DNA of 25,896 bases, taken from IMG/VR virus record IMGVR_UViG_2061766007_002077; one strand, written 5' to 3'. A program made the position numbers and the translations under genes. Of this stretch, positions 9,813 to 22,566 are shown piece by piece (the first letter of the stretch is position 1; each line of letters begins with the position of its first letter). This DNA is from an uncultured virus (IMG/VR IMGVR_UViG_2061766007_002077) (lineage: Duplodnaviria > Heunggongvirae > Uroviricota > Caudoviricetes). The notes under the pieces were generated by a model. The model saw only the letters and a list, made by a program, of their open reading frames with translations, was not told the DNA's origin and made no database searches.

Positions 9813-9902
9813 TTCTTTCCAACTGATATTTCTCATATTTTTTCTTTAAGGGGCTTGATAATCAGCCCCTTTTTTTGTATATTATTATTGAGGAAATACA
9901 TT

Positions 9903-10610
9903 ATGATACACATAACAGGAGACACACACGGATATTGGGACGAGAGGGAGAACTTCCTTCAGTCACTCCCTAAGACAGATATAGTGATATGCCTTGGAGA
10001 CCTCGGGTGGTCATGGGATATCAACCATATCAATGGATTTGTTCCTAGTTGTGAATGGCTGTCTGTATTGGGGAATCATGAGAACTATACCCTCATTGAG
10101 AAGATGCCCGTTGTGGAGAAATACGGCGGAAAGATGAGGCAGATGAAGGACAACGTATTCTATCTCATGAATGGAGAAATGTATGAGATAGAAGGTAAGA
10201 AGTTCTTTGTGTTCGGAGGTGCCTTATCCATAGACAAGCATTACAGGACACCATATGTGTCATGGTGGCCTCAGGAGCAACCTACAAGGGAGGACTTCAA
10301 TCATGCCCTTGACACATTGGAGAGGAACAACTGGACATTTGATGTCATGCTGACCCATACCGCTGAGACAGAGATAGTGAGGGAGATGCTCGGGAGGCAG
10401 GACACAATAAATGACAGCACAGAGACAATGATACTGGAGTTGAAGTATCAGATAAAGGAACATGGAGGAAAGTTCAGTTATCACTTCTTCGGTCATATGC
10501 ATGATTACTGGATTTACTGCAACAATCTTGATTATCTGTGTATGTGCCTTTATGACCAGGTGTACAATCTTGATAAGAAAGACCTTGAGTTCCCCTTGAC
10601 ATATTTCTGA
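9903..10610 (+). CDS. Calcineurin-like metallophosphoesterase
   Basis: GDTHG, GD, GNHE, TH and GHMH metal-binding motifs. Confidence 0.92.
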   Translation: MIHITGDTHGYWDERENFLQSLPKTDIVICLGDLGWSWDINHINGFVPSCEWLSVLGNHENYTLIEKMPVVEKYGGKMRQMKDNVFYLMNGEMYEIEGKKFFVFGGALSIDKHYRTPYVSWWPQEQPTREDFNHALDTLERNNWTFDVMLTHTAETEIVREMLGRQDTINDSTETMILELKYQIKEHGGKFSYHFFGHMHDYWIYCNNLDYLCMCLYDQVYNLDKKDLEFPLTYF

Positions 10611-10632
10611 GAATAAATCTTATTCAAGGCTA

Positions 10633-10661
10633 TTGACAATCTTTGTGGTATATGGTATTAT
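10633..10661 (+). promoter_or_regulatory. sigma70-type promoter with extended -10
   Basis: TTGACA-N17 (TGn)-TATTAT. Confidence 0.85.
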
Positions 10662-10684
10662 GAGAATGTAAGGAGAACAAAGAC

Positions 10685-10894
10685 ATGAAGTACAGAAAAG
10701 AGTTCAAGGACCAGGTTATCAAGACAAGACTTTACTCACTCATGAGCTTCGATTATGAAATCGCTGATGCATATCACATTTCAGTCGCAACACTCAAAAG
10801 GTGGATGAAAGAGTTCTGGGCTGAGAGAAACAGAGGGGCTGAGAACGAGGAGTTCTCATACAACATCAACTGGGAGAAGGTGAGCGAGATCTAG
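10685..10894 (+). CDS. Small HTH DNA-binding protein
   Basis: KYRKEFK...EIADAYHISVATLKRW helix-turn-helix pattern. Confidence 0.75.
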   Translation: MKYRKEFKDQVIKTRLYSLMSFDYEIADAYHISVATLKRWMKEFWAERNRGAENEEFSYNINWEKVSEI

Positions 10895-10895
10895 T

Positions 10896-11291
10896 ATGAA
10901 ACATAAATACCTTATTGACGATAAGATTCCTCATGGAATCTACAAGCCCAAGAAGGGTGACCATAGGATTCCAAAATGGAAGGAATCCAGAAAGGTCTAC
11001 GGGTTTGACGAAAGGGAGACTTGGGACCTCCGTGATTATTCTCTTGCATGGCTCTATGAGAGAATCAAGATGTTCATTGATGTCTGTGACATTAATCTCA
11101 ATTATCACAAGTTCAAGTACAATGACAAGGAGTTCACTCAGCTTGAGGTACTTGACAAGATACTTGAGGACATCAGACTTTACTTTGATGCCAAATACTC
11201 TTATGACCCTGATAAATGGGAGAAAAGAGTACCTTATCTTAATGAGATTGGAGCTTTGTGGGGACTTGTGCTCCCCGCAATGTGGTGGTGA
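10896..11291 (+). CDS. Conserved phage hypothetical protein
   Basis: GFDERETWDL motif and C-terminal MWW. Confidence 0.7.
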   Translation: MKHKYLIDDKIPHGIYKPKKGDHRIPKWKESRKVYGFDERETWDLRDYSLAWLYERIKMFIDVCDINLNYHKFKYNDKEFTQLEVLDKILEDIRLYFDAKYSYDPDKWEKRVPYLNEIGALWGLVLPAMWW

Positions 11292-11309
11292 ATTATATAG
11301 GAGAAAATA

Positions 11310-11486
11310 ATGGACCCTACAACAGCAATGGAAATTTATGATGCCATATTCAAGATATGGGAGATTTATTACAGAAGGGGTATAATAACCGCAGGATTCC
11401 TTGGATTCAATATCGGTGTTCTTGTCTGTATGCTATTCTCAATCAATGGTCTGCTGAGGACTAAGAAGAAAAAGGACGATAAGTAA
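11310..11486 (+). CDS. Small membrane protein
   Basis: AGGAG SD; one hydrophobic helix and a basic tail (below the ORF-track cutoff). Confidence 0.55.
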   Translation: MDPTTAMEIYDAIFKIWEIYYRRGIITAGFLGFNIGVLVCMLFSINGLLRTKKKKDDK

Positions 11487-12004
11487 ATGATTATTGATTA
11501 TAAGGTTCAGGTCAGCAATGTAAAGACTCTGATGTTCTCCAATTCCCATAAATACCTTCTTGTTGAGTCAGATAAGCATATGGGAAAGGAAGAATCCATT
11601 CTTGATGTAGTCAAGGAGATTAGGGAAATCAGCAGCTGGTCTGATAATGAGATAAAGGATGTCCTTTTAGATGTTGAGGATAACTTTGAGAAAACGGACT
11701 ACAAGCCCTTTATGGTTCTTATANNNNNNNNNNNNNNNNNNNNTATGCAATACAGCACAGAATGTCATTAAGGCATATGAGGACTATGAGAAGAATCCTG
11801 AGGAAAGCGGGTATATCGACCATTGGAACGGCCCCTCACATTATGTTAAGATGATAACAAAATATGAGAAGCCTTCATATCTTTTGGTAAGAGGGTTCAA
11901 GGGGCACCCTGAGGGAACTANNNNNNNNNNNNNNNNNNNNNNNNNNNNNNNNNNNNNNNNNNNNNNNNNNNNNNNNNNNNNNNNNNNNNNNNNNNNNNNN
12001 NNNN

Positions 12005-13468
12005 ACAGAGAACGGAGCACTCACATATAAGACCTCAGGCTCAAGAATCCTTGACTTGTTTTCAAGGGGTGGAGCATACAGGAACAGAAGTGATGAGGAT
12101 ATCATTACTCTTGTTTCAGAGGCATTTGAAGAAGACCCGCTTTATACTCTTGAGGTCCTCTTTTATTTGAGAGACATCAGGGGTGGTCAGGGTGAAAAGC
12201 GTGTATTCCGTGTGGGTATAAATGCCTTGAAGGACGCCCTTAGGACTAAGGACGGAAATCTCCACAACCTCTTTGATACAATTATTGAAATTGGCTCCTG
12301 GAAGGACATTTTTGATTACTTTGAGTTTGACGAGTGGAAGGACTATGTTGTTTCCCATGTTGAGTCATTGAATTTCTCCAAGCCTGACCTTGTGTTCAAG
12401 TATATGCCATCTGTTGGTGGTTCAAAGAACAAGCAGGCTGAGAAGTTGGCTGAGATGCTCAAGATTTCTCCTAAGGAGTATCGTAAGATGCTTACAAGGG
12501 AGAGAAAGAGACTCCAGCTTGTTGAGACCTCCATGTGTGCCAACCATTGGAATGAGGTTGATTACAATCATGTTCCTTCAAAGGCGGGCCTTCTCTACAA
12601 GAACGCATTTGCCAAGCATGATGCTGACAGATACCGCGAATTCATCACAAAGGTGAACGCAGGTGATAAGTCTGTCAAGCTTAATGCCGGAACTCTGTAT
12701 CCTTATGAGATTACAGAGAAGTACATGAATAAGTACAACTTTGAGTACTGTGGATGGGGATACTGTAACGAAGACGGTGAGCGTAAGCCTGTGGTCGATG
12801 AAGTTCTTGAAGCTTACTGGAAGTCACTTCCTGTTTATGGAGAGAGTCAGTTCAACGCTGTTGTTGTGGCTGATACGTCAGGTTCAATGTGGGGAAGACC
12901 TATGGCCGTTTCCACATCACTGGCTATCTACTTCGCTCAGCATAACACCGGTCTTTTCCATAACAAGTGGATTACCTTCTCTCACACACCTAAGTTCATT
13001 GAACTCAAGGAAGGAGAGAGCCTTGCTGACTCCATCTATACTTTCTACAAGAACTCAGAGGTAGCTGATACAAACTTGCAGGCTGTATTCGATATTATGT
13101 TGAAGGCAGCCCTGGATTACAAGTTGCCTGAGAATGAGATGCCTAAGTTGATTTACATTGTCAGTGACATGGAGTTCAACAGTGCCATTGATAACAATGG
13201 ATTCTCAGCTACCAATTATGAGGTAATCAAGGAGAAGTACGCAAGAGCAGGGTATGAAGCCCCAGCAGTAGTGTTCTGGAACGTTGATGCCAGAAATGAC
13301 CAGTCACCTGTCAGGATGAACGAGGCTGGTGTGGCTCTGATTTCAGGGTCAAGCCCTTCAACATTCAACTTGGCAATCTCCAAGGAGTGTGACCCTATGA
13401 CCTTCATGTTTAAGACCATCAGAGTCCCAAGATATGAGGAGCCTGCAAGGAGAATCCTTGGTGTCTGA
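12005..13468 (+). CDS. DUF2828-family TROVE/Ro60-like protein with C-terminal vWA domain (true start in the N gap before 12005)
   Basis: In-frame TENGA upstream of the annotated start, RDIRGGQGE, GSWKD, VPS, LYPYE; vWA MIDAS DTSGSM, DTN, SDMEF, VFWNV, SGxS. Confidence 0.88.
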   Translation, partial: TENGALTYKTSGSRILDLFSRGGAYRNRSDEDIITLVSEAFEEDPLYTLEVLFYLRDIRGGQGEKRVFRVGINALKDALRTKDGNLHNLFDTIIEIGSWKDIFDYFEFDEWKDYVVSHVESLNFSKPDLVFKYMPSVGGSKNKQAEKLAEMLKISPKEYRKMLTRERKRLQLVETSMCANHWNEVDYNHVPSKAGLLYKNAFAKHDADRYREFITKVNAGDKSVKLNAGTLYPYEITEKYMNKYNFEYCGWGYCNEDGERKPVVDEVLEAYWKSLPVYGESQFNAVVVADTSGSMWGRPMAVSTSLAIYFAQHNTGLFHNKWITFSHTPKFIELKEGESLADSIYTFYKNSEVADTNLQAVFDIMLKAALDYKLPENEMPKLIYIVSDMEFNSAIDNNGFSATNYEVIKEKYARAGYEAPAVVFWNVDARNDQSPVRMNEAGVALISGSSPSTFNLAISKECDPMTFMFKTIRVPRYEEPARRILGV

Positions 13469-13845
13469 TAAGTCATTTGAGGAGTTCAAACGTTCTCAGA
13501 AAGAGAGGTCATTGAGCATCATCAACGAGTTGAACGAGTTGATTGATTCAATGAGTGATGAGGAGCTCTATGACCATATGATGAAAACTTCACCGTCTTT
13601 CAGAGAAACAATGAANNNNNNNNNNNNNNNNNNNNNNNNNNNNNNNNNNNNNNNNNNNNNNNNNNNNNNNNNNNNNNNNNNNNNNNNNNNNNNNNNNNNN
13701 NNNNNNNNNNNNNNNNNNNNNNNNNNNNNNNNNNNNNNNNNNNNNNNNTGACACAAAGAGTCAGCGACAAGAGTTTCCGTGATTCTCTCTTGGAAAACAA
13801 AGGAATCACAAACCATCCAGTTTTTTATTTATAAGGAGTTCAGCT

Positions 13846-14364
13846 ATGGGTACATGGAGAGAGGACAATAGCCTGATAAGATATCAGGAATACATGACCA
13901 TAGAGGAACTTCTCACAGATTGGGTTGATGATGTAGATAGGGATGTCATAAGGAAGAATGACTTTCCTATGGTAAGGAAGTACATCGGAGAAGGTCAGAG
14001 ATATTCCAGACTTTACAGATACATTGATGCTCCTCACACCAACTCAGACCCCATCTATGATAAGGATGTCGGAGACATAATAGAGTACAATCTGATATCC
14101 ACCACAAAGAAAAGTCCGAGGGAAGCATTTGATGAATGGTTCGTGGACGATACCAATGTCCTTATATTTGAGGATGTCCAGGGACTTGACCCTCAGGAGT
14201 ATGGAGCAGGAAAGTTCGATTGGGAGGATGAGGTGATAATCTGCGGAAGATTCAAGGTCACTGATATCTCAGAGAAGTCATTTCCAATCCCAAGAAGATT
14301 CCAGAACGATTACAGGAAGACAAGGCTGGAATACACACAATACACACTTTCACCGATTGAATGA
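13846..14364 (+). CDS. Putative mono-ADP-ribosyltransferase (R-S-E clade)
   Basis: LYR (Arg), GD..ISTT (STS-like) and EDEVI (ExE) followed by FKV, in the spacing typical of VIP2/C3/Alt/Mod-type folds. Confidence 0.65.
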   Translation: MGTWREDNSLIRYQEYMTIEELLTDWVDDVDRDVIRKNDFPMVRKYIGEGQRYSRLYRYIDAPHTNSDPIYDKDVGDIIEYNLISTTKKSPREAFDEWFVDDTNVLIFEDVQGLDPQEYGAGKFDWEDEVIICGRFKVTDISEKSFPIPRRFQNDYRKTRLEYTQYTLSPIE

Positions 14365-14449
14365 TTGGTTTTCAAAAAAAGGCACTAATTAACCTATGAT
14401 TATGATGAAATTACAGGCAAGACACATTGATATGCTCAATACAAGTATA

Positions 14450-15220
14450 TTAGCCCCCAAGGGAGGGTTAATGGTTCCTGCTTGTGAAAAGGGAGGGCGG
14501 TTAAGTTGAAGGACTGAAACCCTAATACTTCCCGATACANNNNNNNNNNNNNNNNNNNNNNNNNNNNNNNNNNNNNNNNNNNNNNNNNNNNNNNNNNNNN
14601 NNNNNNNNNNNNNNNNNNNNNNNNNNNNNNNNNNNNNNNNNNNNNNNNNNNNNNNNNNNNNNNNNNNNNNNNNNNNNNNNNNNNNNNNNNNNNNNNNNNN
14701 NNNNNNNNNNNNNNNNNNNNNNNNNNNNNNNNNNNNNNNNNNNNNNNNNNNNNNNNNNNNNNNNNNNNNNNNNNNNNNNNNNNNNNNNNNNNNNNNNNNN
14801 NNNNNNNNNNNNNNNNNNNNNNNNNNNNNNNNNNNNNNNAAGTTGAAGAAAGAGATTTTTAAAGTAACTAGCGAAGGAAACAAGAGCCGAAAGGTATAAG
14901 AGAAATCTTGGCTGGCTGAGTAGGCAATGAAACTCTTGGGGNNNNNNNNNNNNNNNNNNNNNNNNNNNNNNNNNNNNNNNNNNNNNNNNNNNNNNTTAGG
15001 GTGCTCCTCTACTTGAACCTCCGAGATTAAAGAGGATGAACATGAGGAAATCAGTATCTCCCGGAGTAAGCGGATAGGGCTACTGGACTTCATGAATATG
15101 GGTTTACTTGAAAGAGTATTCTCCATAAAATCCAAGAACAGCATGATACCTATACTTGTTAAGTGGTTTCTTCTTATGGGTGTCCAAGTTGAAAGGAGTA
15201 AAGAAAAGCCACTTTTGTTA
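14450..15220 (+). ncRNA. Large structured ncRNA candidate (ROOL/GOLLD-like), partly masked
   Basis: No credible + ORF; GNRA hairpins (GCC-GAAA-GGT, TACTT-GAAA-GAGTA), long stem AAGTGGTTT..AAGCCACTT; directly upstream of the tRNA array. Boundaries uncertain. Confidence 0.55.
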
Positions 15221-15293
15221 GGGAGAGTAACTCAGCGGTTAGAGTTCTGGTCTTATAAACCAGCGGTCATTGGTTCAAACCCAATCTCTCCCA
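15221..15293 (+). tRNA. tRNA-Ile(TAT)
   Basis: Perfect cloverleaf GGGAGAG/CTCTCCC; CTGGT-CT TAT AA-ACCAG; TTCAAAC loop. Confidence 0.92.
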
Positions 15294-15345
15294 TAGTGTT
15301 TGTGGTGTAATCATCATAGACATCACCTCCTCTTACAGTCACAGA

Positions 15346-15417
15346 GTTCAGGTAATTCAATGGCAGATAGACCCAGAGTGGAAAACTAGAATGAGGGTTC
15401 AAGTCCCTTTCTGAACT
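15346..15417 (+). ncRNA. tRNA-like RNA lacking a proper anticodon arm
   Basis: Acceptor GTTCAGG/TCTGAAC, D-loop AATGGCA, T arm GAGGG-TTCAAGT-CCCTT; central region poorly paired. Confidence 0.6.
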
Positions 15418-15436
15418 TTTATCCAACTGTGACATC

Positions 15437-15503
15437 GAGATTCAGCTAGTGCTGGTCCTAGTGGAAGTTGGTCGGCCTTGAAGTGCAATTCTTCAGAATC
15501 TCA
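15437..15503 (+). ncRNA. tRNA-like RNA (acceptor + T arm, no D arm)
   Basis: GAGATTC/GAATCTC stem, TGAAG-TGCAATT-CTTCA T arm, central GCTGGTCC..TTGGTCGGC helix. Confidence 0.55.
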
Positions 15504-15640
15504 TACTTATCTATTTGGAACTTGCAAGTTCCACTTATACTTCTTTCTATCCTCCTTACTTGATAAAGGTGGAACTTGTGCGGACACATGAGGTTTGATA
15601 CTTTCAGCCTGGTGTCTGGGTAACAAAAAGTATCACATTT

Positions 15641-15712
15641 GGTTCATTGGTGTAACGGTTAGCACGCAAGATTGTCAATCTTGAGGCAGGAGTTCAACTC
15701 TCCTATGGACCG
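15641..15712 (+). tRNA. tRNA-Asp(GTC)
   Basis: Cloverleaf; CAAGA-TT GTC AA-TCTTG; G73. Confidence 0.93.
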
Positions 15713-15714
15713 AA

Positions 15715-15788
15715 GCTAGAAACCTGAGTTCGATTCTCAGCCCGATAGCTCACAAGTGGTTCGGGTAGTATAGTGGTATTACACTGGC
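15715..15788 (+). ncRNA. Circularly permuted tRNA mimic (YrlA/Y-RNA topology)
   Basis: Order GCTAG - T arm CTGAG TTCGATT CTCAG - CCCGA loop TCGGG - TA - D arm GTAT AGTGGTA TTAC - A - CTGGC. Confidence 0.75.
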
Positions 15789-15938
15789 GGGGAGTAGGTT
15801 ACNNNNNNNNNNNNNNNNNNNNNNNNNNTAATGTCCTATGGATTGCTGATATGTGCAGGAATGTTTGGCAGTTGCCTATGTGTTTCTAACTGCACTGGGA
15901 CATATCTGACTGGAGGCAACCATCAGATGATGTTAAAA

Positions 15939-16013
15939 TGGTACTAAGCTTTGATAGGTGAAGCACCCCTAGTATATAGGGGGAATAAGGGGGTTCAAGT
16001 CCTTCAGTACCAA
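15939..16013 (+). ncRNA. Atypical tRNA/tRNA mimic (anticodon position TAT, no U33)
   Basis: TGGTACT/AGTACCA, D arm GCTT/AAGC, CCCCT-AGTATAT-AGGGG, T loop TTCAAGT. Confidence 0.65.
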
Positions 16014-16017
16014 TAAG

Positions 16018-16182
16018 ATGTATCTTTCTATACAAGGAAAGTGAGACCTTGTACTATTGGTAGATTCTCACAAATCTATCATGTTTGGGATGCTGAGGTT
16101 AGACTGAAGCAATTGGGCAAGAGGCTCGGCCAGGCATCATTCCTTTCTTCATGAGGAGAGGGATTTCCAATGAAAGATATAT
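16018..16182 (+). ncRNA. Multibranch structured RNA with kissing loops
   Basis: 11-bp closing stem, several internal hairpins, complementary loops GTGAG/CTCAC. Confidence 0.55.
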
Positions 16183-16299
16183 TATTTTCAAGAACAAAGG
16201 CATAATGGTAACCTTTACAGACTTTGATGGCCAAGACCAGTCTGATTCAAGAGTATAAGCCCTGAAGTACAAAGGAGAGATTGCTCACCATTCATTTTT

Positions 16300-20701: not shown

Positions 20702-20919
20702 GCTGGAAATCGAGCCTCCTGAGAGGGCAACGTTAGACCATGTGACCGCCGCTTGATGCGATACCCGAAAGGGAGAGGTCTTAATCATAGGATGGCATGG
20801 GAATCNNNNNNNNNNGCTGGAAATCGAGCCTTCTGAGAGGGCAACGTTAGACCATGTGACCACCGCTTTATGCGATACCCGAAAGGGAGAGGTCTTAATC
20901 ATAGGATGGCATGGGAATC
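20702..20919 (+). repeat. Two near-identical ~104-nt copies of a structured element separated by a 10-N gap
   Basis: 20702-20805 and 20816-20919 differ at 3 positions. Confidence 0.85.
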
Positions 20920-22331: not shown

Positions 22332-22381
22332 GGGTGGTTGGGAGAGTTGGTCGAATCCACTCCCCTGCTAAGGGAGCAAAC
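22332..22381 (+). tRNA. Partial duplicate tRNA-Ser(GCT), truncated by gap
   Basis: Identical to the first 50 nt of 22478-22566. Confidence 0.5.
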
Positions 22382-22477: not shown

Positions 22478-22566
22478 GGGTGGTTGGGAGAGTTGGTCGA
22501 ATCCACTCCCCTGCTAAGGGAGCAAACTCCAAAAGGGTTTCGCTGGTTCGAATCCAGCACCACCCG
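22478..22566 (+). tRNA. tRNA-Ser(GCT)
   Basis: CTCCC-CT GCT AA-GGGAG; long variable arm; G73. Confidence 0.95.

Follow-up and report, generated by a model that had tools for sequence, protein, structure and literature searches.

The stretch of DNA analysed here, 25,896 nucleotides of an uncultured virus assigned to the Caudoviricetes (IMG/VR record IMGVR_UViG_2061766007_002077; hereafter the window, to which coordinates refer unless a relative is named), contains a non-coding gap between ORF172, the last long open reading frame (ORF) of a protein-coding region, and 22 + strand tRNA genes (predicted by ARAGORN) that follow directly 3' of the gap and begin with tRNA-Ile(UAU). A sequence-only reading had flagged the interval 14450..15340 as one large ornate RNA of about 800 nt, resembling ROOL or GOLLD, at the head of the tRNA array. 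We think it probable that this interval is not one RNA at all, and that it is instead the junction between a protein-coding operon and the tRNA-gene array of a rumen phage, composed of a terminator, tandem promoters and a folded leader of ~380 nt with a small new domain.

The neighbourhood is phage-like: it has PHROG matches, a DNA methylase gene, the gene at 9855-10610 for a metallophosphoesterase, and an ORF of 470 codons. Near-identical DNA was found in bovine-gut metagenome runs. ORF172 itself has no PHROG or Pfam family and falls into one protein cluster only among 5.8 billion sequences. Two runs of N (14540-14839, 300 nt, and 14942-14995, 54 nt) mask 354 of the 856 bases of the gap; the 502 unmasked bases form three visible pieces, which we designate p1 (14366-14539), p2 (14840-14941) and p3 (14996-15220). 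The earlier statement that the interval has no credible + strand ORF holds for long ones, none of which is visible, and is not entirely true of the 5' part, where a 37-codon ORF within p1 is open in both relatives described below. On the minus strand, a 251-aa ORF in the gap is open solely by reading through N.

What the masking hides in the window can be read in two relatives. One, L082, is an unmasked sequence of 1,898 nt from a Joint Genome Institute (JGI) metagenome, found with an 18-mer from p3, which covers the interval to ~15159. The other, L084 (found with a 20-mer from p1 and read on its minus strand), is part of G001, a viral record of 284.7 kb that is 96% complete. We also used sequencing runs, seen as assembled contigs: X3, which represents a near-identical strain, and the RNA libraries X15, X16 and X18; the variants found in X3 and X15 come from closely related phages. 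The window is 89% identical to L082 in p1, 85% in p2, 95% in p3 and 71% in the phosphoesterase gene; with L084 the identity is 78% in p1, 79% in p2 and 96% over 15152-15178. Table 1 gives the positions of the features.

Table 1. Features of the gap and its surroundings, in window coordinates
Feature	Position	Strand	Remarks
Ro60/TROVE-fold protein gene (DUF2828 + DUF7788)	12056..13468	+	470 codons visible
ORF172, ORFan of 172 aa	13846..14364	+	Last long gene ahead of the gap
Non-coding gap	14365-15220		856 bases, between ORF 13846-14364 and tRNA-Ile(TAT)
p1 conserved element	14380..14539	+	~150 nt; 37-codon ORF 14396-14509 and predicted stems
Masked terminator, then sigma-70-type promoters P1 and P2	14540..14839	+	Predicted by homology, flanks p1 and p2 being conserved
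5'-terminal leader hairpin	14843..14862	+	Minimum free energy (MFE) fold; 7 consensus pairs (3 sequences), one with double changes
p2 domain	14886..14925	+	40 nt, three stacked helices; contains GCCGAAAG
Hairpin i	14934..15027	+	Base UCUUGGGG (14934-41) / CUCCGAGA (15020-27); middle masked
Hairpin ii	15041..15094	+	MFE fold; encloses mini-ORF 15036-15077
Hairpin iii	15097..15127	+	MFE fold; GAAA tetraloop
3' block, ATACTTGTTAAGTGGTTTCTTCTTATG	15146..15215	+	Conserved 30 nt; last hairpin 15161-15214, then U-rich tract
tRNA-Ile(UAU)	15221..15293	+	ARAGORN; Rfam tRNA 70.6 bits; first tRNA gene of the array

Terminator and tandem promoters in the relatives

In L082, the order of elements is phosphoesterase gene, p1, terminator, P1, P2, p2 and p3. 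The terminator has 13 pairs (1276-1305 of that sequence) and is followed by a T-run, while P1 (TTGACA-17-TATTAT, 1334-1362) and P2 (TTGACA-17-TATATT with a TG extension, 1454-1482) each match at 11/12 positions. L084 has the same order, with a terminator of 17 pairs at 2911-2875, promoters at 2862-2834 and 2757-2729 (again 11/12 each), and then p2. The two relatives have the same 52 nt of sequence at P1, from its -35 box to 23 nt beyond its -10 box, whereas the spacer of P2 differs between them. The two promoters are spaced ~105-120 bp apart, and an A-rich tract stands before the -35 box of P2.

The exact pattern TTGACA-N17-TATWWT is found at 17 sites in G001, every one of them on the same strand as its genes and tRNAs, versus 0 on the other strand and 0 for the reversed patterns. 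This bias of 17 to 0 supports the use of such promoters in the related phage, and from it the tandem promoters of the relatives look functional. The window has two visible sites of this pattern, both on the + strand (0.01 expected), and the one at 10633-10661 stands in the same TTCAAGGNTATTGACA context as P1 and P2. Given the conserved flanks, we infer that the 300 masked nucleotides of the window also hold the terminator and the promoters.

What separates p1 from p2 is of unequal length: 300 N in the window, 225 nt in L082, ~247 nt in L084 and 84 letters in X3. Because a terminator and two promoters stand in the middle of the interval in both relatives, and because of this variation in length (84 letters in X3 against 300 in the window), one RNA extending across 14450-15340 is ruled out, and with it the single molecule of ~800 nt that had been proposed. 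The gene ahead of p1 is ORF172 in the window and the phosphoesterase gene in both relatives; p1 goes with the junction and not with any one gene.

Two observations on this part of the locus may be added. Between P1 and P2, both relatives have a hairpin (L082, 1363-1453; L084, 2833-2758 on the minus strand, CAAGAGGTGA...TCACCTCTTG), which is followed by an A-run, not a T-run, immediately 5' of the -35 box of P2; this A-run could be a tract resembling an UP element, or a terminator of antisense transcription. Further upstream, window positions 10611-14365 are an insertion of ~3.7 kb relative to L082 and G001 (where p1 directly follows the phosphoesterase gene), and this insertion carries the Ro60-fold gene, ORF172 and a consensus promoter of its own, the one at 10633-10661.

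The proposed leader and its small domain

Judging by the distance from the -10 box of P2 in L082 and L084, transcription would start at ~14838-14840, and this would give a leader of ~380 nt (~14839-15220) ahead of the first tRNA. Stops are frequent in every frame of the leader in the window, L082 and L084, and no ORF is conserved among the three; the one shared ORF is a mini-ORF of 11-13 codons, present in the window and L082 and not in L084.

The p2 domain of this leader is a small new structured RNA domain that matches no Rfam family. Its helices pair GCC (14886-88) with GGC (14923-25), GGT (14893-95) with GCT (14915-17) and TAAGA (14897-14901) with TCTTG (14906-14910); it is capped by a GAAA tetraloop and contains an invariant internal loop in which GAAA (14889-92) faces GAGUA (14918-22), a loop which we take to resemble the AGUA/GAA type of loop-E or sarcin-ricin motif. 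In the alignment of the three full sequences, all 11 pairs are formed throughout (33/33 cells paired) and 4 of them show double changes; the covariation score was reached by 2 of 500 shuffles, and partners slid out of register pair at most 48.5%. The variants of X3 (14899A>G with 14908T>C, 14900G>T with 14907C>A, and 14895T>C) each keep or improve a pair, and X15 varies at 14899 with 14908, and at 14895, on a contig of depth 2 that may contain errors. The stem previously drawn in this region (CAAGA-GCC-GAAA-GGT..TCTTG) had been given the wrong partners: both the CAAGA/TCTTG pairing and the local GCC-GAAA-GGT hairpin are broken in L084. The family of this domain now numbers three full sequences, to which a handful of sequencing runs add variants.

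Three hairpins and the 3' block make up the rest of the leader. The counterparts in L082 of the arms of hairpin i close a hairpin of 109 nt, and the two differences in the 5' arm are exchanges between G-C and G-U. Hairpin ii lies in a stretch that is 95% identical to L082, and its single stem difference changes G-U to G-C. Hairpin iii shows a double change in L082 (15102 G>A with 15121 C>T, from G-C to A-U), a UU/UU loop becomes paired there through two substitutions (15104 T>A and 15120 T>A), and L082 also has an insertion of 78 nt at the very position of the GAAA loop. Taken as one segment (15036-15135), hairpins ii and iii fold with z = -2.81 (1 of 200 shuffles as stable), and the complete leader of L082 with z = -2.96 (0 of 100).

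Hairpin iii is the inner part of the first stem of the sequence-only reading (TATGG..TACTT-GAAA-GAGTA..CCATA), which is thus upheld by compensatory changes; its outer TGGA/TCCA pairing found no support, TGGA falling within hairpin ii and TCCA being lost in L082. The third stem of that reading (AAGTGGTTT..AAGCCACTT) does form in the window, with z = -1.0, and loses its 3' arm in L084. The 30-nt block ATACTTGTTAAGTGGTTTCTTCTTATG is kept in L084, though the last hairpin of the window is not. A repeat that occurs twice in the window, CCTATACTTGT, was dropped: 9 of 100 shuffles contained the like, and its two contexts fold differently.

In RNA library X15, a contig covers 14996-15101 at depth 8.4 with 0 mismatches; the depth is ~2 over p2 and 2.7-2.9 over neighbouring ORFs. 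In X18, a contig from an L084-like relative corresponds to 15152-15275 and crosses the border between leader and tRNA, a contig being no proof of a single transcript. These contigs show that leader sequence is present in RNA libraries, and nothing further; portions of the interval that they leave uncovered were counted neither for nor against any reading. In L084, the leader is followed by an ORF of 240 codons (with sub-threshold Pfam matches of endonuclease type), and only then by a different tRNA-Ile(UAU). The fold of the leader thus does not include the tRNA, and the question whether tRNA-Ile(TAT) is embedded in the RNA is answered in the negative.

We propose that p1 would end the upstream transcription unit, being followed by an intrinsic terminator and then by the two tandem consensus promoters of sigma-70 type. 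Transcription from these promoters would produce an untranslated leader of ~380 nt, comprising the 5' hairpin, the 40-nt domain of three helices, the three further hairpins and the conserved 30-nt block, and would continue into tRNA-Ile(UAU) and the remaining array; maturation of the first tRNA by RNase P would then cut the leader off. For the conserved 5' domain, the likeliest role is one in cis, namely to stabilise the primary transcript of the array or to offer a protein-binding site on it.

Several points speak against this proposal. The central 300 nt are masked, the terminator and promoters being known from the relatives and not from the window itself, and the 84 letters of X3 leave room for at most the terminator and one promoter. 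The covariation is based on three full sequences and on two sets of variants from closely related phages. The visible pieces of the window fold no better than shuffles (z = -0.82, -1.17 and -0.31). Moreover, the leader of L084 has no excess stability (z = +1.0), and hairpins i-iii, which form the middle of the leader, occur nowhere in G001, where unrelated sequence takes their place; from these two facts it follows that most of the leader is dispensable or interchangeable. As for the RNA libraries, the depth of the leader in X15 (2 to 8.4) is near that of the neighbouring ORFs (2.7-2.9), and the assembled contigs give no transcription start, 3' end or strand.

Rival readings of the interval

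The kinship with ROOL or GOLLD was examined with the Rfam models, whose gathering thresholds are 99.1 bits (ROOL) and 150 bits (GOLLD), and the outcome was negative on the visible window and on the unmasked relatives alike. With Rfam 15 at gathering scores, 20/20 matches in the whole window are tRNA. At E<=10, the region 14300-16200 gave two tRNAs, a pseudo-tRNA (15346-15417), one chance match to a long non-coding RNA, and no ROOL or GOLLD; the unmasked L082 gave chance matches only at the same limit, and L084 gave tRNAs only at E<=1. Over all of G001, ROOL (RF03087) had 0 matches at E<=1, a result without positive control (14 control genomes also gave 0), and GOLLD (RF02032) had 0 among 39 candidates at E<=1. 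No score thus reached either threshold in the visible parts of the window, L082, L084 or G001, the 354 masked nucleotides lying outside the test. What stands of the original idea is that a folded non-coding RNA, of no Rfam family, heads the array, and that it is found near tRNA genes in a phage (22 tRNAs follow, and the PHROG matches and the viral relative of 284.7 kb speak for the latter); it is neither ROOL nor GOLLD, nor one molecule of ~800 nt. A false ROOL/GOLLD candidate is thereby removed.

Searches for more distant homologues added little. Scans of IMG/VR with single proteins gave no close relatives of ORF172 or of the Ro60-like protein; a 24-mer and a 22-mer from the leader had 0 matches each in IMG/VR, and an 18-mer from p2 matched one locus only (L083), by chance. 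With a gapped p2 pattern, we found G001 only in IMG/VR, and 2 chance matches within coding sequence in GTDB genomes. In blastn against INPHARED phages, the tRNA alone matched (3 S-PM2 records). When the three visible pieces were compared with 80 loci carrying Ro60 relatives (913,057 bases), blastn returned matches of at most 22 nt (E >= 0.22) and nhmmer nothing. A covariance model of p2 trained on the 3 sequences (R1) recovered, over 83 sources (946,871 bases), the 3 training sequences along with 8 matches that are weak (E >= 1.2); G001 yielded one copy, and the 80 other loci with Ro60 relatives yielded no further ones. L081, returned by the metagenome scan, is a chance match.

Could the whole interval nevertheless belong to ROOL or GOLLD, with the diagnostic core inside the 354 masked nucleotides? 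Its position by tRNA genes in a bovine-gut phage fits the descriptions of these RNAs given in parts of the ROOL paper (PMC5737381), passages of which also suggest co-transcription with tRNAs. But the 502 visible bases gave no match at E<=10, L082 at the same limit and L084 and the whole of G001 at E<=1 gave none either, and the relatives have a terminator and promoters at the place that is masked in the window, so that we find this idea scarcely credible. It also seems to us very unlikely that the leader is a non-functional spacer whose conservation merely reflects recent common ancestry. It is true that the relatives are close, that the middle of the leader is replaced in G001 and that the z-scores of most pieces are weak; p3 and p1, however, are 95% and 89% identical to L082 when the phosphoesterase gene is only 71% identical, and substitutions within the p2 domain and hairpin iii preserve pairing. 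Marginally less improbable, in our opinion, is that p1 acts as a leader-peptide attenuator, translation of its ORF deciding whether the terminator forms and hence whether transcription reads through into the tRNA array. This ORF is open in the window, L082 and L084 (with 37, 40 and 33 codons, respectively), although there has been a frameshift and although L084 lacks 6 nt in frame, and the terminator begins 26-31 nt past its stop codon in both relatives. The N-terminus of the peptide (MI..KLQ.RHIDMLNTSI) is conserved and the C-terminus varies, but we estimate the probability that the variable 14-19 codons are open by chance at about one half for each sequence. Furthermore, no Shine-Dalgarno sequence is conserved ahead of the ORF, no conserved anti-terminator pairing was found, and read-through would be unneeded with the promoters of the array lying downstream. 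The substitutions in p1 fit RNA stems too (RNAalifold gives 45 pairs, 2 of them with double changes), and p1 may be coding, a structured 3' untranslated region, or both, since the same substitutions fit each reading.

A further alternative concerns the protein encoded upstream. The full product of the 470-codon ORF (P0001) has 499 aa, its true start lying upstream within an N-run. It matches PHROG 850 ("RNA-binding protein", E 2.9e-111) and Pfam PF11443 and PF25043, and its AlphaFold (AF2) model has a pLDDT (predicted local distance difference test) of 83. The top Foldseek matches, full-length and with E values from 1e-7 to 2e-5, are 9kop and 9l5y (Ro60 of Thermus phage phiLo), 1yvp (Xenopus Ro) and 2nvo (Deinococcus Rsr); a sequence search of the Protein Data Bank (PDB) gave nothing below E 0.44, Ro60 being found by the fold search only. 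Ro60 proteins with 71-81% identity (P0002-P0004) are encoded on contigs of ENA/Logan assemblies. In passages of Chen et al. 2014 (PMC4201824), bacterial and phage Y RNAs are described as lying on the same strand as Ro60 and within 4 kb of it; they carry the motif GNCGAAN0-1G close to their 5' end and, internally, a domain resembling tRNA. A part of PMC12135203 describes the binding of two nearby Y-like RNAs by the Ro60 of phage phiLo, and TROVE proteins in some jumbo phages are mentioned in a part of a jumbo-phage survey (PMC7824862).

In the light of these reports, the leader or its 5' domain might be a stand-alone, trans-acting RNA of a new class, specifically a Y-RNA-like partner which the phage Ro60 would bind at the bulged GCCGAAAG/GAGUA helix, in connection with tRNA quality control or processing. 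We regard this as unlikely, although several facts fit it. The Ro60-fold gene ends at 13468 and the p2 domain starts at 14886, that is 1.4 kb downstream on the same strand, a distance within the 4 kb given in that part of PMC4201824; a phage Ro60 that binds nearby Y-like RNAs is described in the passage of PMC12135203 cited above; the motif GNCGAAN0-1G fits GCCGAAAG (14886-14893) in the window and L082, inside the domain supported by covariation; a hairpin and a U-rich tract stand just ahead of the first tRNA; and IMG/VR relatives of the Ro60-fold protein have at least 1 tRNA or transfer-messenger RNA (tmRNA) call within ~6 kb in 38 of 60 loci scanned, a figure that has no background control. 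On the other hand, G001 keeps the p2 domain with 0 candidate Ro60 relatives, and L084 has ACCGAAAG in place of the motif; a degenerate motif of 8 nt is fairly common by chance (in about 1 of 20 such regions, by our estimate); the leader has no T-arm/D-arm module and no Rfam Y_RNA or tRNA match (E<=10, window and L082); there is no conserved pairing of the 5' and 3' ends; and, as said, R1 found no copies in the 80 other Ro60-relative loci. More specifically still, and with a lower probability, one may imagine that the p2 domain, through its GCCGAAAG/GAGUA loop, is the candidate docking site of a Y-RNA-like molecule for the upstream Ro60-fold protein, and that the head of the array yields a Ro60 ribonucleoprotein that would monitor or protect the tRNA supply of the phage during infection. 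If true, this would define a new class of Ro60 partner RNA, linked to tRNA arrays and devoid of the usual internal tRNA mimic, and would connect phage Ro60 proteins with phage tRNA arrays. The link between Ro60 and the p2 domain is a lead, not a finding, and we continue to favour a junction whose leader acts in cis.

Among the 60 loci with Ro60 relatives (L001-L060, of which L049 and L050 are near-duplicates), 23 have at least 3 tRNA or tmRNA calls; a tmRNA call lies directly beside the Ro60-relative gene in L019 and L021, and L014 has one more.

The array beyond the leader and known systems

Further 3', the tRNA-like gene at 15346-15417 has an aberrant anticodon arm and scores 28.3 bits for a cut-off of 29, its counterpart in L084 scoring 31.9 bits; it sits in a spacer 93% identical to L084, and a contig of RNA library X16 covers it at depth 11.8. 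A second tRNA-Ile(UAU) is predicted by ARAGORN at 15939-16013 and is unreported by the Rfam tRNA model even at E<=10. Relative to L084, it shows double compensatory changes in the acceptor and anticodon stems, which mark it as a genuinely folded, tRNA-like RNA whose anticodon loop is unusual. Between two tRNA-like genes, the non-coding stretch 16017-16298 is almost identical to L084 and is represented by several variant contigs; in the contigs of three RNA libraries, nothing else comes near its depth (up to 154 in X15, 23 in X16 and 15 in X18, versus 2-8 for the flagged leader). It has no Rfam match (in the window to 16200, and in L084), folds with z = -1.21, and may be the more abundant stable RNA of the locus; a 35-codon ORF within it (16151-16258) was discarded, its counterpart in L084 having a stop codon. 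Elsewhere in the window, the first 50 nt of tRNA-Ser(GCU) (22478-22527) have an exact copy 146 nt upstream (22332-22381), and further upstream there is a tandem repeat of 104 nt with 97% identity (20702-20805 and 20816-20919).

How does the RNA at the head of the array compare with known systems? Like ROOL and GOLLD, it is non-coding, folded, phage-borne, located directly beside tRNA genes and found in rumen or bovine-gut samples. Unlike them, it has no covariance-model match here, and the middle of its leader is interchangeable between relatives; and, unlike ROOL, the interval is split by a terminator and two promoters in both relatives, and the leader folds as a series of hairpins in predictions that included no search for pseudoknots. 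With Y RNAs of the YrlA type, as portrayed in the relevant portions of PMC4201824 and PMC12135203, the RNA of the window shares a Ro60-fold gene on the same strand less than 4 kb away, tRNA genes close by, and, in a bulged helix near the 5' end, a sequence that fits GNCGAAN0-1G, where L084 has ACCGAAAG. It differs from them in having no T-arm/D-arm mimic, no conserved pairing of the 5' and 3' ends and no Rfam Y_RNA match, and in that its p2 domain persists in a relative without Ro60 (G001).

Phage T4 produces small stable RNAs (species 1 and 2) that are co-transcribed with tRNAs from inside its tRNA cluster. The leader described here would similarly be a non-tRNA segment of the transcript of a phage tRNA cluster, a likeness by description only; unlike species 1 and 2, it heads the array. 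Finally, the heads of bacterial stable-RNA (rRNA and tRNA) operons have two promoters in tandem (P1 and P2), an A-rich element upstream and a leader that undergoes processing. The junction resembles them in the two consensus promoters which the relatives have 105-120 bp apart, in the A-rich tract before the -35 box of P2, in its predicted untranslated leader and in the tRNAs that follow. It differs in being phage-encoded, in its long leader with a conserved structured domain, and in being known from sequence alone, with the promoters masked in the window. The locus illustrates what may occupy the non-coding space ahead of a tRNA array in a phage, namely a terminator, promoters of host type in tandem and, probably, a processed leader.

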